A DNA stretch of 64,000 nt from an uncultured bacterium (GTDB lineage Bacteria > Patescibacteriota > Dojkabacteria > J137): NCBI GenBank assembly GCA_963700155.1, contig OY969472.1, positions 317,511-381,510 of the forward strand, given 5' to 3'. Below the pieces are notes generated by a model. It was given only the letters and a program-made list of their open reading frames with translations. It made no database searches and was not told the DNA's origin. The number at the start of each line of letters is the position of its first letter. The stretch's first letter is position 1. Positions 7,624 through 49,684 of the stretch are shown here, in pieces. The position numbers and the translations under genes were made by a program.

Positions 7624-9615
7624 ATGAAAATCTTTCTCAAAATCCTAGGAATTATTCTAGCTATTTTTATCTTCCATTCTATTACAACAGTTACAGTTCA
7701 TGCTGTAACTTTCACTTATCCAAATTATGATGTAAATGTTCAAATAAGCAAGGATTCAACGTATGTTGTGACTGAAAAAGCAGATTATGTTTTGAATGGC
7801 GAAGCTCATGGATTACGAAGAGACCTTACATTATATGATTCTCAAAAATCTCAGAAGTGTGCTAGTAGTTCAGATCTAACATGCGGTGGATTTGATAGGG
7901 TTCAAGTTTTAAGTGTGACTGATAATACAGGACGTGAACTAAACTCAAATGAATTTAAATTCTATGAATATACAGATGATTATGGAACTAGATATGGAAG
8001 ATTTGAATGGACAATATGGCCAGATGGTAAAGAAGTTACAGATTACAAAGTTGGATGGACAATTCAATATAAAATATTTGGTGGAATTCAAAAAATAGGA
8101 AATAATCCTTATTTCTACTGGAATATGCTTCCAGAAGATCGTAGTGGAACAGTAAATAATGCAAAACTTGAAGTTAACTTCCCAAGTGGCATAAATGTGA
8201 ACAAAGATAATTTATCTGTATATGCTGACGATAGTTACAGAATACAACCAACTTCAGGTGGATTCATTTTTACATTGAGCAGTCTTCCTGACTATAGTAA
8301 TTTTACCGTTGCATATAAATTCCAGCCAACAGATATAGTATTACCAGGCAGTATTTCATATAAAGTAGATGCTCCTTTATATGGAATTAATATATTATTA
8401 GATCAACAGTCAATTGATAGTAATTCGTCTGTTGGAATAATAAAAAGTGTTGAAGCAGGAGACCATACTTTAGAAATTAATCATGTGGGGTACAAACCAT
8501 TCAGTCAGAATATAAATGTAAAATCAGGAGAAACAAGCGATGTTGAAGTTACACTTGTACCGGAAACTTGGATGAGCATTTTGTTAGTTTTAAATAATGT
8601 ATTTATTCTTATTGGCTGCATATTGGTACCAGTAACGATGATTCTTGTATATTTGTATTACAGAAGACATGGTCGTGATAAAAACATGCCAAAAACTATC
8701 ATTCCGCTCTACACTCCACCAGAAAATACTCCTCCATATCTTTTAGGAACAATCAAAGATGAAAGTGTTGATAAAGAAGATATTGTAGGTTCAATTATTG
8801 ATTTAGCTTATCGTGGATTTATTAAAATTAAAGAACTTAAAAAAGGTAAAAATTATGAGTTGAATTTACAAGATAAAGATACTTCTGAATTAAATGAAAC
8901 TGAAAAGCAGATTTTAGATTCATTATTTAATGGTGAAGATACAAGAGAAACTGATGATATGAGTTCTTATTTCCCATCCAAATATATAAAATTAACTAAT
9001 AGAATTTATGATGAAGTTGTTGAGAAAGGATTCTTTAGTAGATCGCCTCGAACTACAATTGGAATTTATGCAGGGATTGGAGTTTTGCTTATTGTTTTGG
9101 GAGTTGGATCAGTTATTCTATTATCTGCTTTATTAACTAATTTCTTAGGGTATATATCTATATTTACTATTGGAATTGCAGCAGCGACGGGAGGTTTTTG
9201 CCTCCTTGTTATTGCCAAATTTATGCCGGCAAAAACCTCTCTTGGCAGCAAAACATATGCTGATATTTTAGGATTCAAAATGTATCTTCATACAGCTGAA
9301 CGTTACAGACTGCAAAAGCTTGGTCCTGATGAATTTGAGAGATATCTATCTTATGCAGTTGTATTCAAAATTGAAAAAGAATGGGCAAAGAAATTTGAAG
9401 GTATTTATAATAAACAGCCTGATTGGTTCGAAGGTGACTATAATGTATGGAATGCAATAATAATTTCAAATTTCTTAAGTAGTTTTAGAACTGCAAGTGT
9501 CAGCGGTATGACTCCGGTCTCGAGTGCAAGTGGTGGTGGATGGTCAGGTGGGGGCGGTTCATTTGGTGGCTTCTCCGGTGGTGGAGGTGGAGGCGGGGGA
9601 AGCGGTGGATGGTAA
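7624..9615 (+). CDS. DUF2207-like membrane protein: signal peptide, large extracellular domain, TM helices and a glycine-rich C-terminal tail
   Basis: 663 aa. An N-terminal signal/TM is followed by an extracellular region, TM segments around aa 320-345 and 480-530, and a C-terminal ...SGGGWSGGGGSFGGFSGGGGGGGGSGGW tail. The layout is typical of the DUF2207 family as I recall it. Confidence 0.5.
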   Translation: MKIFLKILGIILAIFIFHSITTVTVHAVTFTYPNYDVNVQISKDSTYVVTEKADYVLNGEAHGLRRDLTLYDSQKSQKCASSSDLTCGGFDRVQVLSVTDNTGRELNSNEFKFYEYTDDYGTRYGRFEWTIWPDGKEVTDYKVGWTIQYKIFGGIQKIGNNPYFYWNMLPEDRSGTVNNAKLEVNFPSGINVNKDNLSVYADDSYRIQPTSGGFIFTLSSLPDYSNFTVAYKFQPTDIVLPGSISYKVDAPLYGINILLDQQSIDSNSSVGIIKSVEAGDHTLEINHVGYKPFSQNINVKSGETSDVEVTLVPETWMSILLVLNNVFILIGCILVPVTMILVYLYYRRHGRDKNMPKTIIPLYTPPENTPPYLLGTIKDESVDKEDIVGSIIDLAYRGFIKIKELKKGKNYELNLQDKDTSELNETEKQILDSLFNGEDTRETDDMSSYFPSKYIKLTNRIYDEVVEKGFFSRSPRTTIGIYAGIGVLLIVLGVGSVILLSALLTNFLGYISIFTIGIAAATGGFCLLVIAKFMPAKTSLGSKTYADILGFKMYLHTAERYRLQKLGPDEFERYLSYAVVFKIEKEWAKKFEGIYNKQPDWFEGDYNVWNAIIISNFLSSFRTASVSGMTPVSSASGGGWSGGGGSFGGFSGGGGGGGGSGGW

Positions 9616-13890: not shown

Positions 13891-14337
13891 TCAAGATTTA
13901 ATAAATGCCTCAACTATTAAAGATTCCGCTTCTTTATCACTAAGACCTTTTGACTGAAGGTAATACATCATTTCCTTGTCTATGTAGCCAATTGTGGCGC
14001 CATGGCCAGCTTTAACAGCTGACTCCTTGATTTCAAGACTTGGAATTGCTCTGGCCATGGCGCCTTCACTCAGCAGTAAACAATCTATTTTCAAGTATGT
14101 ATCTGTATTTATAGCTGATTTTTCAATCCTCAAAATACCTTCAAAGTCAAATTTTGCCTTATCAAAAAGTACTGCTTTAATATTAATCCTTGATTTTATA
14201 TCCGGTTTTCTATGAATAATAACTATTTTGGATTCAGACTTATTTTCTCCTTTCCCAATATATACTGCACTAATTTCACAATTTTCAGAAATCTCAATTT
14301 CTTGAGTTTTAGTTATATCTATCTTGAATTTTTTCAT
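13891..14337 (-). CDS. Short SufB/SufD (UPF0051) C-terminal-domain protein, a possible mini-SufD or remnant
   Basis: 148 aa. C-terminal ...LLLSEGAMARAIPSLEIKESAVKAGHGATIGYIDKEMMYYLQSKGLSDKEAESLIVEAF matches the conserved SufB/SufD C-terminal beta-helix region. The 300-aa N-terminal part of a normal SufB/D is missing. Confidence 0.5.
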   Translation of the reverse strand: MKKFKIDITKTQEIEISENCEISAVYIGKGENKSESKIVIIHRKPDIKSRINIKAVLFDKAKFDFEGILRIEKSAINTDTYLKIDCLLLSEGAMARAIPSLEIKESAVKAGHGATIGYIDKEMMYYLQSKGLSDKEAESLIVEAFIKS

Positions 14338-14369: not shown

Positions 14370-17300
14370 TTACTGGATTTCTCTGAACGAATAAGATCTA
14401 TCAGCTATATCTGCCGAAAATATAGCGATAAATTTAGGATCATATTTTATTACAACACCTGGATCTGTTAAATTTGCTTGATAATTCAAATCTCTATGTA
14501 AATTTAAAGTTTTAGCTACTACTCCACCTAGGATATAAAGTCCCTGATATTTATAAGATGAACCCAATAAATTATTTGTATTACTTGAGAACGTACCATC
14601 TGTAACTAAATATGCATCAACTATTTCATAATTTGGTGGAGTTGATGAACTAACTGATATGTAAGGGGACTTAACCGACACAGAGGTAACTGAAATATTT
14701 CCCTTTATGACAAACATACATGCCGAGCTATCTGTATCATTTTTTAATTCTGGATTTATTGTGAGATTCCCTCCCACAAGAATTATTGCTTTAACATCAC
14801 AAGTCGAGGCTCCTAACGACAAATCACCACTTTGTTCTAGAATTGTTTTACTTCCTGGAGAGACGCCAATTAAAGTGGAAATCTTTCCTCCGAATCCCAT
14901 ATTCCCGGTTTTTTTTACTATAGTAGTAGCTTTATTCTTTTCTACTCTATCTTTTACCAAGTCATACCATTTAGTAAAATTTGTTGTTTTCGATGGTGCA
15001 ACAGACTCATCAATGTAGTTTATTGCATAAGTATCAGATTTTGAAATTCTTAGAGATGGGATTGCTGGTGTGCCACTCACAACCGAAAAAGTTGCTAAAT
15101 ATGGAGTTCCTGTATCGCCTCCAACAATTGATCCAGAACCAGAAAAATCGGCTACTATTTGATCGCTACTTTTTACATAATTATAAAACTGTACATTATC
15201 TAATGCTCCTGTAAATGCAACAGACCCATTTACTCCGATACAAGGATTTGTAGCCATAACAAAGTTTGCTGTATTACCTAGATTCGTAACTCCACCAGTA
15301 CTTCCAGATCCTTTTAACACCGAATCAACGTACATCGATATACTTGGGCCCGATCTAGTTATTGTAATAAAATGCCAATTATTATCATTTATCTGCTGAC
15401 TGGTTGACACTCCTTTATAATTTGTTCCGGATGCATCCTGATCCAACTCCATACTTATATATCCATTTCCATAAATCAAATTCCAAAAGCTAGCATGTGT
15501 ACATACCAATCGCTTTGAAATAATATAAGATGTTGCAGCACTATTCGTCTTTATCCAAAACTCAATACTAAAATCTCTCGTTCCAAAATTACCAATACTT
15601 GAGTTAGTACTAACACTATTACTACCATTAAAATTACCTGCAGTACCTTCTACCCCAGATACCCAAGAAGTTCCAGTTCCACTAAAAGTTCCATTATTTC
15701 CTCCACTGCTGTCACTAACAGTTGTACCAGTACCCTCATTGAATTTCCAATTTGCTATTGGAAGACCTTTTGAATAACTATACGCAACTTCACTTGCAGA
15801 TCTTGCATAATTGTATATTTCTGCTTCATCAATACTTCCATTTAATGGGTAACTTGCATCACCTCCAATATAAAAAGTTTTATTAGCTGTTGCATACCAA
15901 TTACCTACAAAATTTTGTTGAGATAATAAAACTCCATCTCGATAGAAATAAGCATATGCTCCATCATATACAACTGCATATTGGTGCCATAATCCATCAA
16001 ATTGAATAGCATTTACAGAAACCACATTTCCACCAAATACTGCAAATCTAAACGAACTTCCTATATATTCAACTGCCAAACCACCAGCTGAAGGAACTTC
16101 TAATAATCTACTTGTATGTGATACAGAGGACTTTAACCAGAAAACCACTGATAGTTTACTTGATGAATTAAAATTTAATGTTGAGCCGGATGTATATGAT
16201 AAAGTTGCACCAGCGCCGCTTCCATTTTTTGTAAATGCATTACCATAACGACCTGTTGAGAATGATCCAGATGAAATAGTAGCAGTATAACCACTATTAC
16301 TTGAATCACTAATTATTGAACCAGAACTCTCATCAAATTTCCAATATGCAATTGGAGCAGTCCCAATATCACCTGGAATTGTTCCATTTCCATAGGTAGA
16401 TTGATAAGTTCCTGTAAAAGGAACAGTAAAACTTGGGTTGTCAGGAATATTCACACTAAACCCCTGATTTGCAGAGATATTCCCTTGATATGCGTACAAC
16501 CAAGGTGTAGGTTGAGAGACATCTTTGTTAACGCTAGCATAGTTACATGCTGAATCCATTCCATCAAGCCTGAAATTAAAAGTATTACCTTGAGATGTAC
16601 TTGTATCGCTATAATTTCTTGTTGGAGCTGTTAAATAGTTACCCAAATTTACACTTCCTCTATGGGTATTTGGTGCAAAATTAAATTGGAGATCTTGCCC
16701 AATAGTATTATCTCTTAAGCCCCCTGTACTATCGGGGCGAGTGATATAGTTAACTACATCAGATAAAGTCCCGTTATCACTCGCCCCATATGTAACATTT
16801 AAAGTCTGGTTTGAATTATAAGATGGGCCAGTTATTGTTAAAGTTGGATTTGTTGTATCAATTGTCCAAGTATCAAGTTTTTTAAACATGAAATTATTTG
16901 AGCCAGTAGCATAAGAACTTACCTCAGTCCCATCAGAATTTCTCATATAAACCGTTCCATATACATTATAGGTACCACTAGGGAATGTGTTCTCGAACCT
17001 AATTTTATAAATTGATGTACTTGAATTACCTGATACAGTCATCTTTGAACTTACACCAACATCTATAAGTTTTCCAGTTCCATTCTCATTAGTCTCATCA
17101 CCACTTGAAATAATTGGAGCAAAAGTTACACCATCATTTTTTAGTGTTGCTCCTTGACCACCTGGATTTAAATCTACAGCTATAGCTTTGCTATTTGCAG
17201 ATTTCTGAAACAAAGTGCCTGCATCTATATAGGTATTATTTTCAGAATAAGTTCCTGTTGTTGGAACGAAAACTAAAAAGCTTCCAAGGAATTGATCAGA

Positions 17301-18188
17301 TTCAGTATCTTGATAAGTAACTGAATATGTTATTGGATTCTCTGTTAACCCACTTGAATTATCCCACCTTCCAGAAATACCACTTGATAAAGAACATGTA
17401 TCAGCTTGTGTAAATGAATGCGAAGTTTCAGTTGGAGTACTATTTATAGTGAAATTCCAAACTGCTGAATTGGCATTATTTGAGCCATTAGTTTTTTGAA
17501 CAAACCAACAATAAGTTGTCCCCCAATTTAATCCACTCGCTGTTGTTGAAAGTGTGCCTTGAGGTAACGTTGCATACTGTGTATAAGTTCCAGTACAACT
17601 CGCACTTAAAAATACTTTATATTGGTTACTTTGTGGACATCCTGTACCCCATCCTGTTGCATCAGTCCAACTTAAATTTACCGAATTATTTGGAATAGCT
17701 GAACCAGTTGATGGAGAGCTTAACGTTGCTGCTCCAGGGTTTGTTGATGTACAACAAGACTGAGTGTTGCACGATCTTGTACCTCCACATGCATTGGTCT
17801 GCGTTCCACCTCCACAAGCAACTGAGCACGAACCCCAGCTATTAGAATCACAGCATGCTTGAGTATTACAATACCTAGAATGTCCACATCCATCATATTG
17901 AATTCCTGTTCCACATGATGCAGAACACGAACCCCAGTTTGGAGTACAAGTTGGAGGTGGAGGACAGCTTCCGCATGTATGACTTCCATCAGGACAAGTT
18001 ATCGGGACTTGGCATGTACCTGAAAAAGATGGAGAACAATAATAAATTCTTGTACATAAAGAATCTGAACAAACAACACAACCAGCTCCATTTCCACAAC
18101 ACTGAGTTGCTGCATCTACATTCTTAGAGTACAAAACTCCCAATATAAAAAAACTTAAAACAATAAAGAAAAAAATATATTTTTTCAT
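14370..18188 (-). CDS. Giant secreted/surface protein 'B': signal peptide, Cys-rich region, two thrombospondin-type-1-like repeats, an FN3-like domain, two LamG/ConA-like lectin domains, and a shared C-terminal module
   Basis: 1272 aa.
- N-terminal hydrophobic signal.
- CTPNWGSCSASCGTGIQYDGCGHSRYCNTQACC and SWGSCSVACGGGTQTNACGGTRSCNTQSCC match the TSP1 pattern W-x-x-C-S-x-x-C-G-x-G.
- PGAATLSSP...VNLSW...YKVF is FN3-like.
- IAYWKFDESSG...FDGLWHQYAVVYDGAYAYFYRDGVLL...IDEAEIYNYARSASEV and IANWKFNEGTG...NNWHFITITRSGPSISMYVDSVLKG...LDNVQFYNY are Laminin_G_3-type domains.
- The last 270 aa are about 60-70% identical to the C-terminus of the 821-aa paralog. Confidence 0.7.
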   Translation of the reverse strand: MKKYIFFFIVLSFFILGVLYSKNVDAATQCCGNGAGCVVCSDSLCTRIYYCSPSFSGTCQVPITCPDGSHTCGSCPPPPTCTPNWGSCSASCGTGIQYDGCGHSRYCNTQACCDSNSWGSCSVACGGGTQTNACGGTRSCNTQSCCTSTNPGAATLSSPSTGSAIPNNSVNLSWTDATGWGTGCPQSNQYKVFLSASCTGTYTQYATLPQGTLSTTASGLNWGTTYCWFVQKTNGSNNANSAVWNFTINSTPTETSHSFTQADTCSLSSGISGRWDNSSGLTENPITYSVTYQDTESDQFLGSFLVFVPTTGTYSENNTYIDAGTLFQKSANSKAIAVDLNPGGQGATLKNDGVTFAPIISSGDETNENGTGKLIDVGVSSKMTVSGNSSTSIYKIRFENTFPSGTYNVYGTVYMRNSDGTEVSSYATGSNNFMFKKLDTWTIDTTNPTLTITGPSYNSNQTLNVTYGASDNGTLSDVVNYITRPDSTGGLRDNTIGQDLQFNFAPNTHRGSVNLGNYLTAPTRNYSDTSTSQGNTFNFRLDGMDSACNYASVNKDVSQPTPWLYAYQGNISANQGFSVNIPDNPSFTVPFTGTYQSTYGNGTIPGDIGTAPIAYWKFDESSGSIISDSSNSGYTATISSGSFSTGRYGNAFTKNGSGAGATLSYTSGSTLNFNSSSKLSVVFWLKSSVSHTSRLLEVPSAGGLAVEYIGSSFRFAVFGGNVVSVNAIQFDGLWHQYAVVYDGAYAYFYRDGVLLSQQNFVGNWYATANKTFYIGGDASYPLNGSIDEAEIYNYARSASEVAYSYSKGLPIANWKFNEGTGTTVSDSSGGNNGTFSGTGTSWVSGVEGTAGNFNGSNSVSTNSSIGNFGTRDFSIEFWIKTNSAATSYIISKRLVCTHASFWNLIYGNGYISMELDQDASGTNYKGVSTSQQINDNNWHFITITRSGPSISMYVDSVLKGSGSTGGVTNLGNTANFVMATNPCIGVNGSVAFTGALDNVQFYNYVKSSDQIVADFSGSGSIVGGDTGTPYLATFSVVSGTPAIPSLRISKSDTYAINYIDESVAPSKTTNFTKWYDLVKDRVEKNKATTIVKKTGNMGFGGKISTLIGVSPGSKTILEQSGDLSLGASTCDVKAIILVGGNLTINPELKNDTDSSACMFVIKGNISVTSVSVKSPYISVSSSTPPNYEIVDAYLVTDGTFSSNTNNLLGSSYKYQGLYILGGVVAKTLNLHRDLNYQANLTDPGVVIKYDPKFIAIFSADIADRSYSFREIQ

Positions 18189-18189
18189 A

Positions 18190-18651
18190 TTATATAGAAT
18201 TTAAACATTCCAATCTATCAAATGGGTATTTGATAAAATTTGATAAACCCCCATATGAATTATCCAATTTATCTGAATAACTCGGATTATTAATATAAAT
18301 TGCTAAAACCTTACAATCTCGAGGGGGCAATAAGTTACTGGTCTCACCTTCATTAATATGACTCCATTCCCCTAACATAGTTTCAAGATTAGTTTTTTCA
18401 AATGAATTTAATGGCAACTTAACCTCATCTTTTGCACTGTTAAATATAGAAAGATAACGATCATTAATATCTTCCAAGTGTAAGGTATAACTAAATTTTG
18501 AAGTATTTAGATAGTAAACCGTGAAATTATCTCCAGGAAAAGAATGTCCTGATAAGTCATCTTCTTTTTCTATATTAAAAAGAAGGTACCCACCGACAAA
18601 TATTAAAATTCCAACAATTAATAAAATAGATGCAAAAATTATTTTTCTCAC
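18190..18651 (-). CDS. Small N-terminally membrane-anchored protein, P2 of module b
   Basis: 153 aa; N-terminal TM. The extracytoplasmic part is S/N/Y-rich with two Cys near the C-terminus. Immediately upstream of giant gene B. Confidence 0.4.
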   Translation of the reverse strand: MRKIIFASILLIVGILIFVGGYLLFNIEKEDDLSGHSFPGDNFTVYYLNTSKFSYTLHLEDINDRYLSIFNSAKDEVKLPLNSFEKTNLETMLGEWSHINEGETSNLLPPRDCKVLAIYINNPSYSDKLDNSYGGLSNFIKYPFDRLECLNSI

Positions 18652-19100
18652 TTTAAATACAAATTAATATTATATGAATAAGTCCCTTGAAAATAGTAAC
18701 TAACAATACTAATATCATATGAACTTCCTGATTGTAGATAGCTACTAAGTTGCTGTTTATCTATAGTTGAATAACTATAATCAGGTTGAAAGATACCAAC
18801 TTTATTAGCAATTTCTGTAAACGGTATATCAACATTTACATCATTCTCTCTAAAATTTATAACAAAAAAGATACGGTCACTATTTACAACAGAATTTTTC
18901 AACGTTCCTAATATACTTCCTGAATTACCGACAGCATGTACATTAACATTATTAGAAACCAACCACTCACTGCTACTATACATGTCATTCCCCCAATAAT
19001 TTATTTTATTATTGTAGTCAGAGTATCTATATATACAAAAAACAACAGCAATTAGAAACGTTATTATTGAAAATATCAAAAAAAGATTTTTTTTCATCAA
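18648..19100 (-). CDS. Small N-terminally membrane-anchored protein, P1 of module b
   Basis: 150 aa; N-terminal TM and an S/N/Y-rich ectodomain. It overlaps the next gene by 4 bp, indicating translational coupling. Confidence 0.4.
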   Translation of the reverse strand: MMKKNLFLIFSIITFLIAVVFCIYRYSDYNNKINYWGNDMYSSSEWLVSNNVNVHAVGNSGSILGTLKNSVVNSDRIFFVINFRENDVNVDIPFTEIANKVGIFQPDYSYSTIDKQQLSSYLQSGSSYDISIVSYYFQGTYSYNINLYLK

Positions 19101-19154
19101 AAAATATTAATACTACTTAATCTATCATATGAGTCTATCAAGGTAAACTTAAAA

Positions 19155-21620
19155 TCAAAGGACTTCTCTAATAGAATATGATCGATCTGCTAAATCATTT
19201 CCAAACATAATCAAATACTTTGGGTTATATTTCACAACTACTCCCGGATCAGTAAGATTGGCTTGATAATTCAAATCTCTTTTCAAAGATAATGCATTCC
19301 CCGGAGCGCCATTAACAACCATTCCTCCATCTATATACAACCCTTCATATTTATTTGTAGAACCTGGAAGATTGTTTGTAAAAGTTTCAAGTTTCAAGTC
19401 AGTAATTATATATGCTTCAATCTTATCGTAATATGGCTGAGTAGTAGAATCTACAGCAATGGTAGGCGACTTGGCGGCCACAGAAGTAAGATTAACATTA
19501 CCTTTAACTACAAACATACATGCAGAAGCATCATTATTCTCTACAAAATCTGTACTTAAAGTTAAATTACCACTAATAAGGAATATTACCTTAACATCAC
19601 AAACTCCATTACTAATCGTCAAGTCGCCCCCCGATTGTTCAACTATCACTTTATCACCTACTGACACTCCAATTCCATTTGCAATACTTCCATCAATACT
19701 CATATTTCCACTCTTTGTTACTATTGGGCTTTTCTTATTTTTCTCTACTCTATCTTTTACAAGGTCATACCATTTAGAAAAATTACTTGATTTCGGTGGT
19801 TCGACAGCATCATTAGTATAATTTAGTGCATAAGTATCAGTTTTTGAAATCCGTAAGGTTGGTACTATAGTATTTCCACTAATAACAGCATAACTTGAAA
19901 GATAAGGAGTTCCAACATCATTGGCAAATGGTACTTTAAAGTTAGGATTATCTGGTATATTAACTTCAAAACCTAAATTCGCAGAAGCATTTCCAAGATA
20001 ACTAATGATCCACGGTTTTGGTTCAGATACTCCAATTGTTGTTCCCGAAATATTACATGCATTATCTTTTGCAACAAGTTTATATGAATAATTAGCAGGT
20101 ATTCCAGTTGTTTTATATTTATGTAAACCTAAATTACCGGTATTTATACCAGCGTTAGAACCTTGAGGATAATCATATGGTGTATTTCCTAAATTAATTA
20201 CCCCGACACTTGAATCTGTTAATTGTGCTCCACTTGATTTATCAGACCAAATATAAGAATAAATTGTATATAATCCAGAACCTCCTGAATCTGTTGCACC
20301 CCAATTTACGTTAAAAGTTTGGTCAGTATTATAAGTAGGACCGGTTAAAACTGGGCCAGGATTTGCCAAATCAAATCTCCAACTATCTAATTTTATAAAC
20401 ACTTGTGAATCCAATGGTGTTGCATAAGAAGATACTATAGTTCCATCACTATTTTGCATTAATACCATCCCATATACATTATAAGTTCCGCTAGGGAATG
20501 TATTCTCCATTCTTATCTTAAAATTTGCTGTTGCAGTATCTCCACTTACAGTCATTTTAGTATCTACATCTGCTCCTAAGACAGTTGCATGGCCATTTTG
20601 AGTAGTTTCATCTCCACTTGTTATTCCTGACGACCACGTAATATTATTATTCAAGGTACTAACTTTACCATTGGAGTTATTAATTAAAACTCCTATACCA
20701 CCAGCATTTATTGCTTCCTGCTCAACTGTATTAGCATTTACAGTTGGATTATTTTCTCTATATACTGGAACAAAAACTAAATAACTTCCTAAAAAAGTAT
20801 CACTTTCTGGATCTTGAAAAGAAAATGAATAACTAATTGGGTTCTCGGTTTCTCCACTTGGATTATCTGCCCTTCCTGAAATCCCATCCGATATCTTGCA
20901 GGTATTGTCCTGGGTAAAATTATGACTTAAATTTATAGGTGTTTTATTCACTTTAAAACTCCAGACTGAAGAATTTTGAGTACTTTTGCTATTATTTTTC
21001 TGAACAAACCAACAATAATTTGCCCCCCAAGATAATCCACTAACATTTTTATTTAATGTACCTTGAGGTACACTTCCATAATTTGTATAAGTACCAGTAC
21101 AATTTTGACTTATGAATACTGTATAAGTATTTGTGTTTGGGCATCCAGTGCCCCAGGAAGCTGAATCAGACCATTGTAAATTCACTGAGTTATTTGGAAC
21201 AATTGAACCGTTAGCAGGAAAAGACAATGTTGCAGCTCCTGGGGCACTTACTGTACAACAAGATTGAGTATTACAAGCCCTAGAATGGCCACAGCCATCA
21301 GATTGAGTTCCTCCACCACAAGATTTGGAACATGCGCCCCAGTTTGGAGTGCAACCTCCTCCTCCTCCACCAAGGCAGCATCCCATATTAACTTCTCCAT
21401 CACCATTTCTAAAACATCTAACACCTACATTAGGAACATTTTCTGTATGAAATCCTGAGTCACAGGGGTTGCACTCTGGAGCGCATTCTGCAGAAACCCC
21501 AATTATAGAACTAACAACTCCTGAACTTGAGTAATTACTTCCAGTATTGAAAAAGGAAATTACCCCAAGTATAAAAAGTGTTATTAAAACAACAGTTTTA
21601 AGTTTTTTAAAATAATTCAT
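19155..21620 (-). CDS. Giant secreted/surface protein 'A', paralog of B: signal peptide, Cys-rich region with a Gly6 tract, one TSP1-like repeat, an FN3-like domain, and the shared central and C-terminal modules; no LamG domains
   Basis: 821 aa. It contains CTPNWGACSKSCGGGTQSDGCGHSRACNTQSCC (TSP1-like) and PGAATLSFPANGSIVPNNSVNLQWSD (FN3-like). It is collinear with B throughout, except for a roughly 450-aa insertion in B between ...NIPDNP.F.VPF and GTPYL.... Confidence 0.7.
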   Translation of the reverse strand: MNYFKKLKTVVLITLFILGVISFFNTGSNYSSSGVVSSIIGVSAECAPECNPCDSGFHTENVPNVGVRCFRNGDGEVNMGCCLGGGGGGCTPNWGACSKSCGGGTQSDGCGHSRACNTQSCCTVSAPGAATLSFPANGSIVPNNSVNLQWSDSASWGTGCPNTNTYTVFISQNCTGTYTNYGSVPQGTLNKNVSGLSWGANYCWFVQKNNSKSTQNSSVWSFKVNKTPINLSHNFTQDNTCKISDGISGRADNPSGETENPISYSFSFQDPESDTFLGSYLVFVPVYRENNPTVNANTVEQEAINAGGIGVLINNSNGKVSTLNNNITWSSGITSGDETTQNGHATVLGADVDTKMTVSGDTATANFKIRMENTFPSGTYNVYGMVLMQNSDGTIVSSYATPLDSQVFIKLDSWRFDLANPGPVLTGPTYNTDQTFNVNWGATDSGGSGLYTIYSYIWSDKSSGAQLTDSSVGVINLGNTPYDYPQGSNAGINTGNLGLHKYKTTGIPANYSYKLVAKDNACNISGTTIGVSEPKPWIISYLGNASANLGFEVNIPDNPNFKVPFANDVGTPYLSSYAVISGNTIVPTLRISKTDTYALNYTNDAVEPPKSSNFSKWYDLVKDRVEKNKKSPIVTKSGNMSIDGSIANGIGVSVGDKVIVEQSGGDLTISNGVCDVKVIFLISGNLTLSTDFVENNDASACMFVVKGNVNLTSVAAKSPTIAVDSTTQPYYDKIEAYIITDLKLETFTNNLPGSTNKYEGLYIDGGMVVNGAPGNALSLKRDLNYQANLTDPGVVVKYNPKYLIMFGNDLADRSYSIREVL

Positions 21621-22006
21621 AAACTAAAAGTTTCAAAAGAATTCTCTAACTTATCCTTACATGAAATATATCTTACCAAGTCCTTATCATTATTAATATT
21701 TTTAATATCAATTTCAATATTAAAATACTTGCATGTATTCTTCGGGACTAAAAGCTCTCCACTTACAAAAAAATTATCAAGAAAATCATTTGCAGTTTTA
21801 TCTTTAATAGGAAAACTAAACGTCTTATTGTTTTCATTAACCAAACTTAAAACATCATTTTGTAAATGTATATTTACTTTTGAAGTATCAATATAAATAG
21901 AATCATAATCATAGTTTTGTATAGTAGTATTAGCTAATTTATATATAGTTAAACCAATAAAAATTATTGAAAGTAATAATAATATTAAAATTAAAAGTTT
22001 TCTCAA
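21617..22006 (-). CDS. Small N-terminally membrane-anchored protein, P2 of module a
   Basis: 129 aa; MRK + TM, with two Cys near the C-terminus as in the 153-aa P2b. It overlaps giant gene A by 4 bp. Confidence 0.4.
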   Translation of the reverse strand: MRKLLILILLLLSIIFIGLTIYKLANTTIQNYDYDSIYIDTSKVNIHLQNDVLSLVNENNKTFSFPIKDKTANDFLDNFFVSGELLVPKNTCKYFNIEIDIKNINNDKDLVRYISCKDKLENSFETFSL

Positions 22007-22010
22007 AAAT

Positions 22011-22517
22011 TTAATTTAATAAATAAAACCTGCTTACATAAGGATTTCCTTGTGTACTTTCTGGATAAGATATCTCAAGATCAATTCCACCTATACTCTT
22101 TAATTTATCAATAAAATCTGAATGATTTAATGATTCAGTTTTTAAAGAAACTGTATCAAAATCATATAAACTTCCTGTAAGATATGAATTAGGAATTGTT
22201 AAATCCATAGTTGATTTATTATTATCGTCACCTCCATTAAATTCTCTTAAAGTTGCTTTAGCAAAATTCCCAGTTTCAGGCAGAAATTCTAATGCACTAA
22301 CGAATCCACTATACTCTTTTCTATGAATGATACTTTTTAAAGAAGAATTGTAATTAAAATCATAAAGCCAGCTAACAGATGAAGTTTGAGAACTTTGCTT
22401 AAGTGAACCTATTAATCCCCCTGTGGAATTACCAGTAAAAAAGATAAAAATAACAAATGAAATTATCAAAATAAAAATGGCTATAACTACACCAATATTT
22501 TTCCTTAAGTTTTGCAT
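22011..22517 (-). CDS. Small N-terminally membrane-anchored protein, P1 of module a
   Basis: 168 aa; N-terminal TM and an S/N/T-rich ectodomain. It is the first gene of the cluster. Confidence 0.4.
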   Translation of the reverse strand: MQNLRKNIGVVIAIFILIISFVIFIFFTGNSTGGLIGSLKQSSQTSSVSWLYDFNYNSSLKSIIHRKEYSGFVSALEFLPETGNFAKATLREFNGGDDNNKSTMDLTIPNSYLTGSLYDFDTVSLKTESLNHSDFIDKLKSIGGIDLEISYPESTQGNPYVSRFYLLN

Positions 22518-22579: not shown

Positions 22580-23209
22580 TTAAGAGAAAGCTAGTAAATT
22601 TTTAATTGGGACATAAGAAGTTCTGTGAAGACTACAAATACCGAATTTATGAATTGCAAATCTATGCTCTTTTGTTCCATACCCCTTATGTTTTGCAAAA
22701 CCGTAATTGGGGAATTCCAAATCTAATCTTTGCATTAATCGATCACGCTCTACTTTTGCTAAAATTGATGCTGCTGCAACAGAATAAAAAGTAGAATCTC
22801 CTCGAATTTTTTTTAGTGAATTCTCACTAAAATCTTTAGAAAATTGGCCATCAATTAAAAAATATGTATGGCTATCATCATATTTCTCAATGACTTCTGT
22901 TATTAAATGTTCAACAGTTTTCCCAATGCCAATACTATTAATTTCTTTTAAGCCTCCAAATAAAACTGAGTATTTATGAGTAGAAAGAAAAGAATACACC
23001 TCAGATCGCTCATCTTTTGTTAATTGCTTGGAATCAGTTACTTTTTTTACTGGTTTAGAATCAAATTCATAAATATATGCACCAACTGCTACAGGACCTG
23101 CCCAACATCCTCTTCCTACTTCATCGATACCGATAATTCGTGTATACATACCTGTGCTGAGAAGTTCTTTTTCATGTTTTGGAGTTAAAAATTTTTTCTT
23201 TTTCTTCAT
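22580..23209 (-). CDS. rnhB: Ribonuclease HII
   Basis: RIIGIDEVGRGCWAGPVAVGAY matches the RNase HII active-site motif. Confidence 0.85.
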   Translation of the reverse strand: MKKKKKFLTPKHEKELLSTGMYTRIIGIDEVGRGCWAGPVAVGAYIYEFDSKPVKKVTDSKQLTKDERSEVYSFLSTHKYSVLFGGLKEINSIGIGKTVEHLITEVIEKYDDSHTYFLIDGQFSKDFSENSLKKIRGDSTFYSVAAASILAKVERDRLMQRLDLEFPNYGFAKHKGYGTKEHRFAIHKFGICSLHRTSYVPIKNLLAFS

Positions 23210-32747: not shown

Positions 32748-35700
32748 TTACTGCTTCTTTATTGAAAGATTAACTGAAAAATCTGGATTAATAGTTTGGT
32801 TGTATACTAAGCTGTCATTTTGTTTGGAACCAACTGGTTCAAAACTTGTTAATATTAAATCAGGTTCAAAAACAATCTTTTGATCTAAATTTGTATCTGC
32901 ACCTCTAATACTCATAGAATTAAGAGTAGCATTATAATTGCCATCCGAATTACTTTTTAATTTTGGATTTACAGCCCAGTCAAATTCAACAGATTTTTCA
33001 TCAAGAATTTGTGCAACAGCACAAGTCTCATCCGAATATTCATTAATACTTACTTTATATGATTCTATTCCCTTTACTGTAACCTTATCTTTTTTTACTG
33101 ATGAAGGTAGACAAATCGAGAGTCTTTGTGCTGAACCAAATACGGGAACTTGTACCACAGTCTTATAAGTTAGACCTAAGTTAGAATCGATTCTTATTTC
33201 ATCAGACACATTAAAATTTAAATATCTATCTAAAGATACCATTGTAGGATCTTCAAGATTATATCCAAGTGAATAAAATGAATTTGCCTTTGAACTTTTT
33301 ATTCCATTTAAACTATTTGATTTAACAAATGACTCATATTCAAGATCGGAACTATTAAATAGAATGCCTTGAGTAAGGGCTGAATTATGAAATGAAGTTA
33401 TTATTTGAGGAAACAATCCTGAAATATTATTGAACATTAAGTTTATTGTTTGAGCCATTATATGCGCAGAAATTTCATGTTTAGCTGATAATGTTGAATT
33501 ACCAATCTGTGATTTACCTAACTGGCTCAAAAAGTTATCTTTTTCATAATTCAGCCCTTCTACACTCACATCATTTCCATTGTTTTTAAGTATATCCAAA
33601 AGTTCTGAAAAACTCTGATAATTTATTGATAATACTCCCGAAATCTTTTGATCAAATGTATCATTAAATATTTTAGAAATACTATTTGAAAATACAGAAT
33701 AATCTGAAATATTCTCAAGATTTGAATATGAAATATGATCTTTAGATACTGCTGTTAGAGATCTTTTATTAATCTCATCTAAAGTATTCTGATCAATGCT
33801 TTTATAATCAAACTTTACAGAATCTGGAGATTGTAATGTAGTTTTAGTTATTGCTCCATTATCTAATGTTACTAATAAAAATGCAGCAGTCTCACCACCG
33901 ATTGGTTTTATCCTTGTACTATCCTGTAATAATATTAAGTATGTTTTTTTAGAATTAAGGCCTAATATTTCAGGCAGGTATTTTACAGATTCCAATGACT
34001 GCACTCCAGTTTCGTATTGCTTTAGTTTTAAATTCATATTAACCAAACCACTTACAAGAAATCCTGGTAGAACAGACATATCTACTTTTTGAGCTTGACC
34101 AAGCCCTTTCTGATATTTTTCAATTCCGGTAGTTAAATAAGGTTGTCTATTTACTAATTCCTCAAGATAATTTTGATAATTGGTGTTCGAAGTGCTCGTT
34201 GAAAGATATCCATCTGTTCCCGACCTAACCTGAGTATTATTTTGAAAATTATTAAGATAATCATAAAAAGGCTCAAGTGAATATTGTATGTTGCTTAAAC
34301 CCTCAGCTGTTACTTGATAAGCATTAATCATATTTTTAAACTGAGAAAATTCATTATTTAAACCTAAAATTGAAGCTTCGGAATTAAAACTCTCTAGGTT
34401 TTCTTGGATATCTTTCAACGAGCTACTTAAAGTATCTGCATGCAGGTTTCCAGTACTATAATTACTTGAATCTATCGAATTAAATGTATTATTGTAAAAA
34501 GGTAGTATTGAAATTAAATCTCGTCCTATTAAAACTGAAGGTGAGAATACTCCAAAAAAGAATAAGAAAAATATTACAAATAAAAATAATAAAGTAACTA
34601 TTTGCCCCGGTGACTTATTTTTAAATAGTGTAAAAGTATTCCCAAAGTCTGTAGAAAAATTCCATATTTTATTTGAAATTTTTTCTTTTAAAGTCTTATT
34701 GTGAGATATTTTTTTTGATTGAACATTATTATTTGCATTAGTAATACTTTGCATTTTAAGTTCTTCCTGTTTTTTTCTCTCCGCAATTAATCTTGAAATA
34801 GGTCCACCATATTGATCTTTTTTAGATTCTTCTTTATCTGCCAAAGACATAAAACTTTTTAGTTTATCAATAACATTATCTTGAGAAGGGTTGACTTTAT
34901 TAGTTTGAGTTTCCAAAAGATAGATTTTTGCAGCCGCAACTGATTGAGTTATTGCTTTATCAATCGGAATTTTTGGAGTCCAACCTATTGCTGAAAGATT
35001 AGGTGCTGGTTTGTAAAGCCTAATTTCAGGAAGATTATCATCTTCATCAACAAATTGTATCTCCTTTGCATCTGCTTCAAGTTCTTGAACCTTATATGCA
35101 ATCGATAAATGTGTAAAAGGATTAGGATAAGCTATTGAAAAAATCTCTCCTTTTGTATTTGCTGAAAATTGAGCTTTAATTATTCCATAAGCAGCATCCA
35201 TTAAATGTACAAGCCACTCTGATTCTAGTCCATCTTTTGATAATTTTAGAGGCTGTTTTTCTACGACTCTAATCATCAGATCAGTGAAGAAAGTCTTTGT
35301 TGAGAAATCTAAACCTTCACCTATAATTTCACCTAATCGTACAATTCTTGCATCAAGGTTTGTTTTTTCTGAATATTCCATAACAAGACTTTCTGCATAT
35401 CTTTGTACTTCCATTTCAGTATAAACAGTATGTCTTTCTTTTGAATCAACACCGTATTTAGCACTTAAATCATCGTAAGATAGACTTAATTGATGTGCTC
35501 TAATAGCTGTAGTTAATAGAAATTTAGACCCAAATTTATTTGCTAAATTTAAAGTATTATCAAGATAGTTAGAAAACTTTAGGAAATTCTGAGTAGATAT
35601 TTTTGACATATAATCTAATGACTCATGATCAAAATAGAAAATATAGTCTAGTCTTCTTAATTCTTCATCAAGTTCAGCTAAGGTTGTGTAATCTATAAAA

Positions 35701-35894
35701 CTTACTAATGATCCTTTTGGAAAAATATTTAACTTTGCAATATTCTCATCAGAATAATTATCAACAATAATCACATATCCTCCTTGTTCAATTAAAGAAT
35801 CAACAATTTCTAATCCAAGTCTAGAAAGTCCTCCAACTATCAAAGAAGTTGGATATTTTATTGTATTCTTTAATCTGTATTGTTCCTGAATCAT
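32748..35894 (-). CDS. Fusion protein: N-terminal cytoplasmic NAD(P)-binding epimerase/dehydratase-like Rossmann domain, one TM helix, and a large extracytoplasmic DUF4012-like domain
   Basis: 1048 aa. SLIVGGLSRLGLEIVDSLIEQGGYVIIVDN is a Rossmann fold; a TM helix lies around aa 440-465. The ectodomain motif YLILLQDSTRIKPIGGETAAFLLVTLDNGAI is shared with the 740-aa protein at 47462..49684. I recall this motif as the DUF4012 hallmark but cannot verify it here. Confidence 0.5.
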   Translation of the reverse strand: MIQEQYRLKNTIKYPTSLIVGGLSRLGLEIVDSLIEQGGYVIIVDNYSDENIAKLNIFPKGSLVSFIDYTTLAELDEELRRLDYIFYFDHESLDYMSKISTQNFLKFSNYLDNTLNLANKFGSKFLLTTAIRAHQLSLSYDDLSAKYGVDSKERHTVYTEMEVQRYAESLVMEYSEKTNLDARIVRLGEIIGEGLDFSTKTFFTDLMIRVVEKQPLKLSKDGLESEWLVHLMDAAYGIIKAQFSANTKGEIFSIAYPNPFTHLSIAYKVQELEADAKEIQFVDEDDNLPEIRLYKPAPNLSAIGWTPKIPIDKAITQSVAAAKIYLLETQTNKVNPSQDNVIDKLKSFMSLADKEESKKDQYGGPISRLIAERKKQEELKMQSITNANNNVQSKKISHNKTLKEKISNKIWNFSTDFGNTFTLFKNKSPGQIVTLLFLFVIFFLFFFGVFSPSVLIGRDLISILPFYNNTFNSIDSSNYSTGNLHADTLSSSLKDIQENLESFNSEASILGLNNEFSQFKNMINAYQVTAEGLSNIQYSLEPFYDYLNNFQNNTQVRSGTDGYLSTSTSNTNYQNYLEELVNRQPYLTTGIEKYQKGLGQAQKVDMSVLPGFLVSGLVNMNLKLKQYETGVQSLESVKYLPEILGLNSKKTYLILLQDSTRIKPIGGETAAFLLVTLDNGAITKTTLQSPDSVKFDYKSIDQNTLDEINKRSLTAVSKDHISYSNLENISDYSVFSNSISKIFNDTFDQKISGVLSINYQSFSELLDILKNNGNDVSVEGLNYEKDNFLSQLGKSQIGNSTLSAKHEISAHIMAQTINLMFNNISGLFPQIITSFHNSALTQGILFNSSDLEYESFVKSNSLNGIKSSKANSFYSLGYNLEDPTMVSLDRYLNFNVSDEIRIDSNLGLTYKTVVQVPVFGSAQRLSICLPSSVKKDKVTVKGIESYKVSINEYSDETCAVAQILDEKSVEFDWAVNPKLKSNSDGNYNATLNSMSIRGADTNLDQKIVFEPDLILTSFEPVGSKQNDSLVYNQTINPDFSVNLSIKKQ

Positions 35895-47461: not shown

Positions 47462-49684
47462 TTATTTACTGCTTAACTTATCCCAAGGGATAGAATTAAC
47501 AAGGCCAGTTAACCAATCAAGACTTTTATCATAATTATCTACTGAGATAATACCATTTTTATACGTTAGAACTTTATCTCTATCTAGTACAAAATCAATT
47601 GAATACTGTTGTCCCCCTTGATTAATATTTATTGTATATTTCTCTCCCCAAGATTTTCCGGGGTGTTTTTGAATTAGAAGTGTATATTTTTTATCAGATT
47701 TATAATTTATAGAATCTGGCAAATCATAGCTTACATTCATTTCCTGTCTTAAGATCGGGTCTGATTCTTGAAATCTTCGATGATCAAACTGTACTATATT
47801 GTCACTAACTTCTTTATTCATAATTGAATCATAATATTCCTGTGGATAATAACCAACATATCCAGAGGCTGTGTATCCATCTGAATTGAAATTCGTAGTT
47901 CCAACTGGAGTCATAAATCTTACCCAGGCTCTATAGCTAAATGAAGTTGATGGTGAATATTGTTTTTCCAAACCAGGTTCATATACTTTTGTTTGAAGCC
48001 ATTTTACGTTAACAGCATCATTTATATTGCCATTGTCTTGGATTGTTACATTTTGTGTAACTTCGTCTCTAATCCATTTATTTAATTTTAATGAACAATT
48101 TTGTGCTTCATTCATATGGAAATAATCACCACCGCTATAATCAGTTGCAAATCTTCCAGACATTCCATAAGTATCTAAATACTTTTGAGTATCAGCGCTG
48201 AAAGGTGCTTCAATTGCTAAATCTCTTCTTTGGAACGATTGAATTATTGTACTTAGGATGTCAGGAAATTTTTCAACAGGTAGGTTGAAAAATTTCTTTT
48301 TAGCAGCATTAGCAATATCTTTAATAATCTCTTTTCTCTGATCATTTGGTAGATTTTGGTCTGTTTCTCCTTTAATAAAATCATATAAATTTTCTGCTGT
48401 AACAGTCCCATAACCTTCTACTTCTAGTGGTTGGATTAAATTTATTAAATTTGTTGCAAAAGTCTCATCAAGAAATAAAATATAATCATATTCGGGATAC
48501 TTATCTGGGTAGACAGGTTGAACAATATTATAGTAATCAACAAGCATACTTCCTATTTGGTGTAAATCTGGATAAATTCCTGCATCTTGAACTCTTAATT
48601 CAGTTCCTCCACATCCTAGATTCATTAAAACATTCTGCCCATAAATATTACTATATGGCATTGGTCGACCAACTCCCCATAAATCATATTGAAAGTTCCA
48701 CATATCTGTTAAAAAGATATCTTCACCTAAAGTACCTTTATCAATATTCATAAATCCATAAGCTGTTAATAAACCTCCTGAGGATCTCATCTCGGTTTCA
48801 TTTTGAAGTATTAATAAATATTTCGCAGGTTTGTTTGCTCCAACTAAGTCAGGAACGTATTTTAAGAAATTTGTGGTTTGAGCTGAAATTGTCGGGAATT
48901 CATCTATAAAATCATAACTAGATTGGATTGAATCTTTTAAATTATATCCTGCTATATTTGGAACATAATTTAAATCAATTTTCTTAACATCTTTTAGAAT
49001 ATCTTCTATTTGAGGTTCAATATTATTATAAAGTTTTAAATAACTAGGAAGCTGTTGCAGAATTAATGTCACTGCTCCTTCTTCTTCACCTTTTTTAGGA
49101 ATTACTTCATTTTGATCAACTTTAAATCCAGTTAATTTAAGTACATCTTTTAAATCCGGAAGAGTTGTTTGTATAACATTACTAGTTTTATGAAGTATTC
49201 CTCTGGCAACCTGGAAGTTTTCATAATATCCTTTTGTAGCATCCATAGAAGCTAAGAAATCATACCTACTTAATTCGCCATCTATATTATTTAAATCTGT
49301 CTCAATATTATTAAAATATGAGTCAATATTTGATAAATCTTTTCCATTAAAGTCATTAAGAATCGAAGCACCATTAGCCTTAATATCATCAACATAACCA
49401 AGGATTCTTTGAGCAGGAACAACTACAAAAAAATAACCTAAGCCACCAACTATCAATAGTATTGCAATTATTAACAATACAAAAATTCTTAATATTTTCT
49501 TCTTTTTCTTACTTTTATCTGAAACTATTGGGTTATCTACATTAACAACAGTTGTGGGTTTTTCGACTTGGTTTTCATTTTTTACTTCCGAATCTTGGAA
49601 TAAAACCCCGTCCGATTGACTGGATTCTTCTAATTTTTCTTTTTTAAAATTTAAATTTCTACTTTTCACCAAAATTAAATACAA
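47462..49684 (-). CDS. Membrane-anchored protein with a large extracytoplasmic DUF4012-like domain
   Basis: 740 aa: Lys-rich cytoplasmic N-terminus, one TM helix, and a 650-aa ectodomain. The motif YLLILQNETEMRSSGGLLTAYGFMNIDKGTL is shared with the 1048-aa protein. Confidence 0.45.
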   Translation of the reverse strand: MYLILVKSRNLNFKKEKLEESSQSDGVLFQDSEVKNENQVEKPTTVVNVDNPIVSDKSKKKKKILRIFVLLIIAILLIVGGLGYFFVVVPAQRILGYVDDIKANGASILNDFNGKDLSNIDSYFNNIETDLNNIDGELSRYDFLASMDATKGYYENFQVARGILHKTSNVIQTTLPDLKDVLKLTGFKVDQNEVIPKKGEEEGAVTLILQQLPSYLKLYNNIEPQIEDILKDVKKIDLNYVPNIAGYNLKDSIQSSYDFIDEFPTISAQTTNFLKYVPDLVGANKPAKYLLILQNETEMRSSGGLLTAYGFMNIDKGTLGEDIFLTDMWNFQYDLWGVGRPMPYSNIYGQNVLMNLGCGGTELRVQDAGIYPDLHQIGSMLVDYYNIVQPVYPDKYPEYDYILFLDETFATNLINLIQPLEVEGYGTVTAENLYDFIKGETDQNLPNDQRKEIIKDIANAAKKKFFNLPVEKFPDILSTIIQSFQRRDLAIEAPFSADTQKYLDTYGMSGRFATDYSGGDYFHMNEAQNCSLKLNKWIRDEVTQNVTIQDNGNINDAVNVKWLQTKVYEPGLEKQYSPSTSFSYRAWVRFMTPVGTTNFNSDGYTASGYVGYYPQEYYDSIMNKEVSDNIVQFDHRRFQESDPILRQEMNVSYDLPDSINYKSDKKYTLLIQKHPGKSWGEKYTININQGGQQYSIDFVLDRDKVLTYKNGIISVDNYDKSLDWLTGLVNSIPWDKLSSK

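Follow-up and report, generated by a model that had tools for sequence, protein, structure and literature searches.

A tandemly duplicated three-gene module encoding candidate stalk adhesins in a Patescibacterial core locus

For the recognition and attachment of hosts by ultrasmall episymbiotic Patescibacteria, the factors implicated so far are limited to type IV pili and a handful of loosely defined adhesins (PMC10633639, PMC11623550). Among described pilus tip proteins, ComZ of Thermus thermophilus carries a solenoid reported to be closest to an ice-binding protein (PMC6561018), and a similar solenoid in the PilX tip pilins of cyanobacteria has been proposed as a PilY1-like plug (bioRxiv 10.64898/2026.02.12.705559). 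Here we analysed 64,000 nucleotides from an uncultured bacterium of the Patescibacteriota (contig OY969472.1, positions 317,511 to 381,510; hereafter the window) and describe a tandemly duplicated module of three genes, in which two small proteins with an N-terminal transmembrane (TM) helix, P1 and P2, precede a large protein, GiantA in module A and GiantB in module B. The initial annotation of this DNA recognized no described system, and the scaffold of the large proteins indeed has no name in Pfam or NCBIfam; at 821 and 1272 amino acids (aa), "giant" overstates their size and serves here as a label.

Like ComZ and PilX, the giants have small partner genes next to them, and some of their relatives lie in or beside type IV pilus clusters. 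Unlike ComZ and PilX, in which the solenoid is inserted in a pilin fold with an N-terminal pilin helix, the giants have no pilin domain or signal and carry their solenoid at the C-terminus, preceded by a Sec leader, a Cys-rich head and a stalk of fibronectin type III (FN3)-like domains. They also have no detectable sequence similarity to either protein. The FN3 stalk, the lectin cassettes and the ice-binding-protein/ComZ-like solenoid are known parts; what is new is an obligate three-gene unit with fixed cassette sites and recurrent whole-module duplication in a Patescibacterial core locus.

On balance, and with some reserve, we favor the view that each module encodes one cell-surface adhesin, a Sec-exported, disulfide-braced stalk whose solenoid end is held by two cognate single-pass membrane proteins and whose variable head and cassettes bind the host. 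The giant would be exported by Sec through its cleavable-looking N-terminal signal and would fold outside the cell as a disulfide-braced rod, with a variable Cys-rich head bearing one or two short thrombospondin type 1 (TSP1)-like knots, about four FN3/immunoglobulin (Ig)-like β-sandwiches below it, and then a conserved C-terminal triangular β-solenoid. Scaffold loops at fixed points take up ligand-binding cassettes (LamG in GiantB; discoidin, Kelch, C-type lectin and VWA in relatives). P1 and P2, inherited and duplicated with the giant, would be its cognate membrane tether or assembly partners and would dock its conserved C-terminal module, with the head and cassettes facing outward to bind glycans or proteins on the host-cell surface. 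The operon is probably a tiny episymbiotic bacterium's grip on its host.

Two collinear, diverged modules

The two modules comprise six open reading frames (ORFs) on the minus strand:

22517-22011 (minus): P1a, 168 aa; bitopic, with an N-terminal TM helix and a ~140-aa ectodomain; opens module A.
22006-21617 (minus): P2a, 129 aa; bitopic, with a conserved Cys pair; 4-bp overlap with the GiantA start (21617-21620).
21620-19155 (minus): GiantA, 821 aa; predicted exported scaffold protein without a cassette.
19100-18648 (minus): P1b, 150 aa (149 from ATG); bitopic, with an INYWGN...W motif behind the TM helix; opens module B.
18651-18190 (minus): P2b, 153 aa; bitopic, with a conserved Cys pair (C113, C149); 4-bp overlap with P1b (18648-18651).
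18188-14370 (minus): GiantB, 1272 aa; GiantA paralog with a double LamG cassette.

Their order and lengths and both 4-bp overlaps are as first annotated, and so is the hydrophobic helix that opens all six products (evident from the sequences themselves; the GiantA model places it at residues 2-22). P2b and GiantB are 1 nt apart.

GiantA and GiantB had been called collinear paralogs, and we found them to be 50% identical over 503 aa and 57% identical over the last 253 aa, with an extra segment of ~430 aa in GiantB. They are most diverged in the head (17% identity) and in the fourth sandwich (GiantA aa 451-535; 17-33%), and least diverged in the TSP-like repeat (82%). The best DNA similarity between the modules, also in the TSP-like repeat, is 80% over 100 nt, which indicates that the duplication is not recent; recent gene conversion between the modules was rejected on the same value. 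The first GiantB repeat is 80% identical at the DNA level to the GiantA repeat and 63% identical to the second GiantB repeat, and the C-terminal modules of the giants share 70% DNA identity over 279 nt. The paralogs differ in their heads, in the fourth sandwich and in the presence of a cassette, which would imply two binding specificities.

The small partners had been described as duplicated as well. For P2a and P2b this stands through the family profile only (leave-one-out hhalign 86%, hmmsearch 9e-11), and the P2 Cys pair is invariant in 10 homologues. For P1a and P1b homology is not demonstrable, with no significant similarity between them (BLASTP E 0.05; leave-one-out hhalign probability 2%); P1a fits the P1 family by position and topology. 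A word-indexed search with the P1 alignment returned 4 proteins. P1 and P2 show no relationship to each other (hhalign probability 17% over 8 residues), and profile searches of both against PDB sequences returned nothing relevant.

The public annotation of P1b (P0160) is 111 aa long and starts at the internal Met40, thereby losing the TM helix and the INYWGN motif. Because homologues conserve both, the longer ORF, starting at TTG or at an ATG one codon on, is the better call.

Stalk, solenoid and cassettes of the giants

The large proteins divide as follows:

21552..21620 (minus): GiantA signal/TM helix, aa 1-23; modelled as a helix over residues 2-22.
21255..21485 (minus): GiantA Cys-rich head (aa 46-89) and one 32-aa TSP1-like repeat (aa 90-121; nt 21258-21353).
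20943..21254 (minus): GiantA FN3-like domain, aa 123-226, with the family signature WGxGCP...YCWxV.
20016..20942 (minus): GiantA stalk, about three further predicted β-sandwiches, aa 227-535; of these, the last (aa 451-535) differs most between GiantA and GiantB.
19158..20015 (minus): GiantA conserved C-terminal module, aa 536-821; predicted helix and triangular β-solenoid, ending ...RSYSIRE.
17754..17948 (minus): tandem pair of TSP1-like repeats in GiantB, at aa 81-112 and at aa 113-145, the latter being an internal 99-nt duplication.
17439..17750 (minus): GiantB FN3-like domain, aa 147-250, 60% identical to that of GiantA.
15144..16361 (minus): GiantB cassette of two LamG/concanavalin-A-like lectin domains, ~aa 610-806 and 808-1015.
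14373..15128 (minus): GiantB C-terminal β-solenoid module, aa 1021-1272, 57% identical to GiantA aa 568-820.

A first AlphaFold model of GiantA from five sequences (pLDDT 60.7) was too weak and was superseded by one built on 52 family sequences (pLDDT 85, pTM 0.66), in which residues 121-815 are confident. It shows a signal peptide followed by a Cys-rich head that stayed unmodelled, then some four β-sandwiches of FN3/Ig type and, at the C-terminus, a triangular β-solenoid. Foldseek aligned 410-590 columns of it to tandem FN3/Ig arrays, which suggests that residues 123-535 form a rod of about four β-sandwiches. The FN3 assignment of the initial annotation therefore holds by fold, as the domain is a seven-stranded β-sandwich of FN3 topology, and fails by profile, as the isolated domain has no fn3 (PF00041) match at E<=10. 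Neither GiantA nor any of the four small proteins has a significant Pfam or NCBIfam match (for GiantA, none at E<=1).

Such a rod recalls Gram-positive adhesins of the stalk-and-head type, in which a tandem β-sandwich rod presents binding modules; S. gordonii C123 and Ruminococcus Sas6 are examples, and Foldseek matched 7l0o_B and 7uww_A. Those proteins are anchored by LPXTG/sortase or by cohesin-dockerin, whereas the giants have no such signal and are encoded with two membrane proteins instead; their Cys-rich head is also unusual. We found no SLH domain, LPXTG sortase signal, lipobox or C-terminal TM anchor in the giants (by Pfam and NCBIfam and by reading the C-termini, which end ...RSYSIREVL and ...RSYSFREIQ with no hydrophobic tail). 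Sec-type A-x-A sites can be read in GiantB and in the relative P0003. Cysteines of the head are conserved in 45-52 of 52 homologues. Over the whole protein, cysteines conserved in 44-52 of the 52 include C241, C522, C674 and C701; these four and C160 were scored as invariant, which fits an oxidized, extracellular protein. The hydrophobic N-termini and the Cys pair of P2 likewise point outside the cytoplasm.

The giants could instead be structural envelope proteins, an S-layer or cell-wall scaffold with P1 and P2 as membrane anchors and adhesion as an incidental property. Their β-sandwich-rich architecture and Ser/Thr/Asn/Gly-rich sequence would suit such a role, as would vertical inheritance in a fixed housekeeping setting (rplS-HIT-rnhB-[module]-sufBD-like...fusA). 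A Cys-rich head and optional lectin-type cassettes, however, are atypical for S-layer proteins, and neither SLH nor any other S-layer family matches at E<=1. Duplication with divergent heads suits recognition more than a lattice, and self-assembly has no supporting evidence. We consider this explanation distinctly unlikely. Membership of the giants in RHS or S-layer families, which had been raised as a check on the initial annotation, was rejected, as Pfam and NCBIfam gave no such matches.

In its predicted form the GiantA solenoid resembles both ice-binding proteins and ComZ, a tip pilin of type IV pili. The model shows the right-handed triangular β-solenoid with a packed α-helix that defines the DUF3494/IBP-1 fold (3wp9, 6bg8, 7bwx), and a Shewanella example of that family is likewise fused to Ig-like domains. 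Unlike DUF3494/IBP-1 proteins, the giants have no sequence-level membership of the family (Pfam Ice_binding matches neither giant at E<=1) and no sign of ice binding, and their solenoid module is the conserved end of varied passengers and tolerates loop cassettes of 200-400 aa.

A solenoid of this type might also belong to a protein that is released and not displayed, so that the giants would be secreted effectors, enzymes or ice-binding proteins with a glycan-degrading or ice-binding solenoid. β-solenoids are common in polysaccharide lyases and tailspikes (PMC6561018), and one relative, P0007, has a PT-HINT domain, typical of polymorphic toxins. Against this, no RHS/YD repeats and no catalytic, toxin or PT-HINT domains were found in either giant (Pfam, NCBIfam), an Ice_binding match is lacking, and the PHROG matches of GiantB are restricted to its LamG cassette. 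Moreover, the solenoid is constant under highly variable passengers, which fits docking better than ligand-specific activity, and the obligate pairing with two membrane proteins would be left unexplained. We judge this explanation very unlikely. GiantA, P1 and P2 have no PHROG matches at all; with PHROG hits confined to the LamG cassette and housekeeping genes as neighbors, an origin as a prophage or phage tail fibre was rejected.

The initial annotation had described TSP1 and LamG as adhesion modules typical of eukaryotes and had called both rare in bacteria. For LamG, the domain is present in GiantB in two stretches (Laminin_G_3, PF13385; E 4.3e-35, 121.5 bits vs a gathering threshold of 27.6), with the copies delimited by PHROG matches at aa 613-802 and 822-1003, and absent from GiantA by Pfam. 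The cassette interrupts the C-terminal module close to where it begins, at a point behind GiantA residue ~563. LamG of the concanavalin-A-like Laminin_G_3 type is not rare in bacteria, contrary to that claim, and in line with this it occurs in 3 of 52 family members scanned.

For TSP1, the core motif aligns and the Pfam cut-offs are not reached. TSP1_ADAMTS (PF19030) scores 20.0 bits in GiantB (E 8e-4) and 18.0 bits in GiantA (E 0.0035) against a cut-off of 23.8, and TSP_1 (PF00090) scores 9.1 bits against 21.6. The alignment is limited to a 15-residue core, W-x-x-CS-x-x-CG-x-G (profile positions 5-19). Eukaryotic TSP1 repeats share with the giants the core W-x-x-C-S-x-x-C-G-x-G-x-Q/R; unlike them, the repeat of the giants is ~17 residues shorter than TSP_1 and lacks the second Trp and the Arg ladder, having six Cys in 32-33 aa, only one Trp and no R-x-R. 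The region stays below pLDDT 50 even with the 52-sequence alignment. The relatives P0005 and P0007 carry the same short repeat together with canonical repeats that pass Pfam TSP_1. In P0007 (855 aa), which has a PT-HINT/intein-like domain, there are three TSP1-type repeats: one is canonical (TSP_1, 37 bits) and the other two are short, of 32 aa. At the level of sequence, P0007 thus displays a gradation from canonical to shortened TSP1 repeats within a single protein. A degenerate, shortened TSP1-like knot in the giants is accordingly plausible, although unproven.

As modelled, then, the scaffold is defined by the FN3/Ig stalk and the ice-binding-protein/ComZ-like β-solenoid and not by TSP1 or LamG, and LamG is one among several optional cassettes. 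The core idea of the initial annotation, that a bacterium with a reduced genome and a probably episymbiotic lifestyle has a duplicated, diverging operon of adhesin type, survives this change; its "eukaryote-typical" TSP1 and LamG as the defining modules do not.

Family, genomic setting and the type IV pilus

Word-indexed homologue searches returned 8 proteins for GiantA and 9 for a trimmed 6-sequence alignment. In an exhaustive HMM search, 2317 proteins matched at E<=1e-3, of which 180 reached E<=1e-30, and ~100 matches are full-length, unannotated members of ~800 aa; scans of genome contigs and of metagenome contigs gave one locus each. For this family we found neither a Pfam or NCBIfam model nor a published description, and in the 52 members scanned the scaffold itself has no Pfam match, although fn3 matches in 4 of them. 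Cassette domains recognized by Pfam among the 52 are LamG (3 members), F5/8 type C (2), Kelch (2), C-type lectin (1) and VWA (1). Large inserts recur at four points, after GiantA residues ~114, 556-568, 633 and 755. The second of these receives the LamG pair of GiantB and the discoidin domains of P0009, and the fourth, inside the solenoid, receives the Kelch propeller of P0003 and the LamG pair of P0014. Many further proteins share only the C-terminal module of ~300 aa under different Cys-rich, Sec-led passengers, which argues that this module is the constant mounting end.

The three-gene arrangement, whose conservation among relatives had been proposed as a check, is widespread. Two small ORFs lie directly upstream of the giant, often overlapping it, in 13 of the 15 modules seen; loci L003 and L007 show a single small ORF. 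The small ORFs read at L001, L002, L004, L005, L008, L010 and L011 open with a hydrophobic helix. The module usually sits between two genes, which in the window are:

22580..23209 (minus): rnhB (RNase HII), conserved upstream boundary of the module.
13891..14337 (minus): stand-alone SufBD-core protein, 148 aa (Pfam SUFBD_core, E 1.7e-38), conserved downstream boundary.

rnhB adjoins the module at eight loci (L001, L002, L003, L004, L005, L008, L011 and the P0003 locus), with the order rnhB-small-small-giant also in L001, L004, L005, L008, L011 and the P0003 locus, and the sufBD-like gene follows downstream in L002, L003, L005 and L011. The nearest genome-resolved relative, with locus L002, is a metagenome-assembled genome (MAG) labelled uncultured Candidatus Saccharibacteria. 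Its order is truB, HTH, rplS, HIT, rnhB, P1 (157 aa), P2 (126 aa), giant (808 aa), sufBD-like...fusA, which is the neighborhood of the window with one module; the window therefore contains a tandem duplication.

Whole modules are duplicated in three cases, in the window, in L001 and at the P0128 locus. At P0128 the copies form a tandem pair; in L001 the second module is dispersed and consists of small proteins of 160 aa and 126 aa and a giant of 1524 aa that bears three discoidin domains. Giants of the same genome are nearest each other (51% and 45% identity, vs 31-36% between genomes), and the duplication therefore occurred independently in each lineage. Between the window and L002, EF-G is 80% identical, whereas the giants are 34-37% identical and P1 and P2 below 30%, demonstrating that the module evolves far faster than its neighbors.

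A connection to type IV pili was absent from the initial interpretation. Under this alternative, the giant would be a Sec-exported tip plug and adhesin like PilY1, ComZ or PilX, and P1 and P2 would be very divergent, non-canonical minor-pilin-like adaptors that insert it at the tip by their N-terminal helices. The ice-binding-protein-like triangular solenoid shared by ComZ and cyanobacterial PilX, a proposed tip plug replacing PilY1, supports this idea (PMC6561018; bioRxiv 10.64898/2026.02.12.705559), as do several relatives of the giants. In a distant full-length subclade the module is transcribed divergently from pilM-pilN-pilO (L010; P0128 locus), and an N_methyl pilin gene lies near the P0128 module. 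P0005 shares the TSP1-like and FN3 region with the family (hhalign probability 99%) and is encoded within a complete pilB-pilT-pilC-pilin-pilD...pilMNO cluster (L012), behind two small ORFs, and a 510-aa partial homologue occurs in another type IV pilus cluster (L009). At L012 (7099-7479, plus strand) the large protein is directly preceded by two small ones, of which one is Cys-rich and secreted (126 aa) and the other a single-pass membrane protein (172 aa), echoing the small-small-large order.

Other observations point away from the pilus. Neither P1, P2 nor the giants have a class III signal (G|F-T-L-x-E), and none of the six proteins matches N_methyl (PF07963) at E<=1, whereas the genuine pilins of L009 and L012 do match it. 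Read directly, P1 is Asn/Gly/Tyr-rich behind its TM segment and not a long pilin helix. A regular-expression scan of the 64-kb window gave two matches to the canonical pilin motif, neither of them a pilin. Eight loci have the module beside rnhB and not beside pil genes, and most loci are not near pil genes. The 172-aa protein of L012 has no detectable homology to P1 or P2, and the sequence similarity of P0005 is confined to the N-terminal domains, with no detectable homology of its C-terminus to the solenoid module of the family. Finally, solenoids of the ice-binding-protein type are also found in proteins that have no connection with pili.

Like PilY1/PilC, the giants are large non-pilins, predicted to be exported by Sec, encoded after small proteins with hydrophobic N-termini on which they are proposed to sit, and PilY1/PilC are modular adhesins with an optional VWA domain, which one member of the giant family also has. 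Unlike PilY1/PilC, the giants have no β-propeller family match (Pfam, NCBIfam), their modelled C-terminus is a solenoid, P1 and P2 lack pilin motifs, and most giant loci lie outside pil operons. In Streptococcus sanguinis PilB/PilC and in PilX1/PilX2 of the Saccharibacteria strain TM7x, a ligand module (lectin, VWA or β-propeller) is likewise grafted on a conserved mounting domain (PMC8179133, PMC11623550). The large, lectin-like TM7x proteins, putative tip pilins, are also reported to lack a PilD signal, as the giants do, which favors the pilus alternative (PMC11623550). These proteins are nevertheless pilin folds in pil loci, unlike the giants with their FN3 stalk and solenoid. Mounting of the giants on a type IV pilus is possible, though unproven, and we regard the pilus-accessory explanation as a whole as credible but doubtful.

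We therefore return to the membrane-tethered stalk adhesin, on which several points weigh. We infer the contact between P1/P2 and the giant from their co-inheritance. The homology of P1 and P2 over distant loci, and even between P1a and P1b, is not demonstrable, with very fast evolution, so "cognate partner" is a statement about position and topology. The giant has no recognized anchoring signal and may be released. LamG, Kelch and discoidin domains are found in enzymes and in non-adhesive proteins too. We likewise infer the lifestyle of the organism from a single MAG label.

Positional conservation, fast evolution, lectin-cassette exchange and duplication as a unit are what is expected of a host-specificity determinant, and the family is a concrete candidate for the way in which these bacteria recognize and hold their hosts. 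A bolder proposal, which we think rather unlikely, is that the module is an undescribed host-recognition apparatus of Saccharibacteria-like Patescibacteria, a "split" relative of the ComZ/PilX tip complexes. In it, a solenoid adhesin would be mounted on the membrane or on the type IV pilus tip by two helix-anchored proteins, both of them hyper-divergent and non-canonical, and module duplication and lectin-cassette swaps at fixed loops would set and shift host range. The family offers a testable tie of ice-binding-protein-like solenoids to type IV pilus tips beyond Thermus and cyanobacteria. Its defined scaffold and C-terminal module could serve for Pfam-style models, and its insertion sites are defined as well. 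Even if the giants are merely generic adhesins, the analysis mends an annotation gap: all six genes had been "hypothetical", and the start of one had been mis-called.

Minor features of the window

The 148-aa SufBD-core protein downstream of the module corresponds to the C-terminal half of the SufB/SufD core only, and the windows that were read showed no further Suf genes. Three ORFs of 89-120 aa at 14707-15018 (plus), 17720-17989 (minus) and 19459-19821 (plus), which run antisense or out of frame to the giants, were set aside as probable non-coding shadows. A promoter and terminator scan gave 59 sites vs 56 expected and was uninformative in this AT-rich DNA.

Several further genes of the window encode envelope-type or secretion-related proteins. 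An 840-aa VirD4/TrwB-like coupling ATPase (55427-57949, plus; TrwB_AAD_bind, TraG-D_C) probably belongs to a Patescibacteria-typical type IV secretion system. A 727-aa CarboxypepD_reg-domain protein of envelope type is encoded at 50648-52831 (plus). Two large DUF4012 proteins are encoded at 32748-35894 (minus) and 47462-49684 (minus), the first fused to an NAD-dependent epimerase domain, and DUF4012 also occurs near the module in the P0003 locus. A DUF2207 membrane protein, again of envelope type, is encoded at 7624-9615 (plus), and L007 also has a DUF2207 gene near its module, downstream of fusA.

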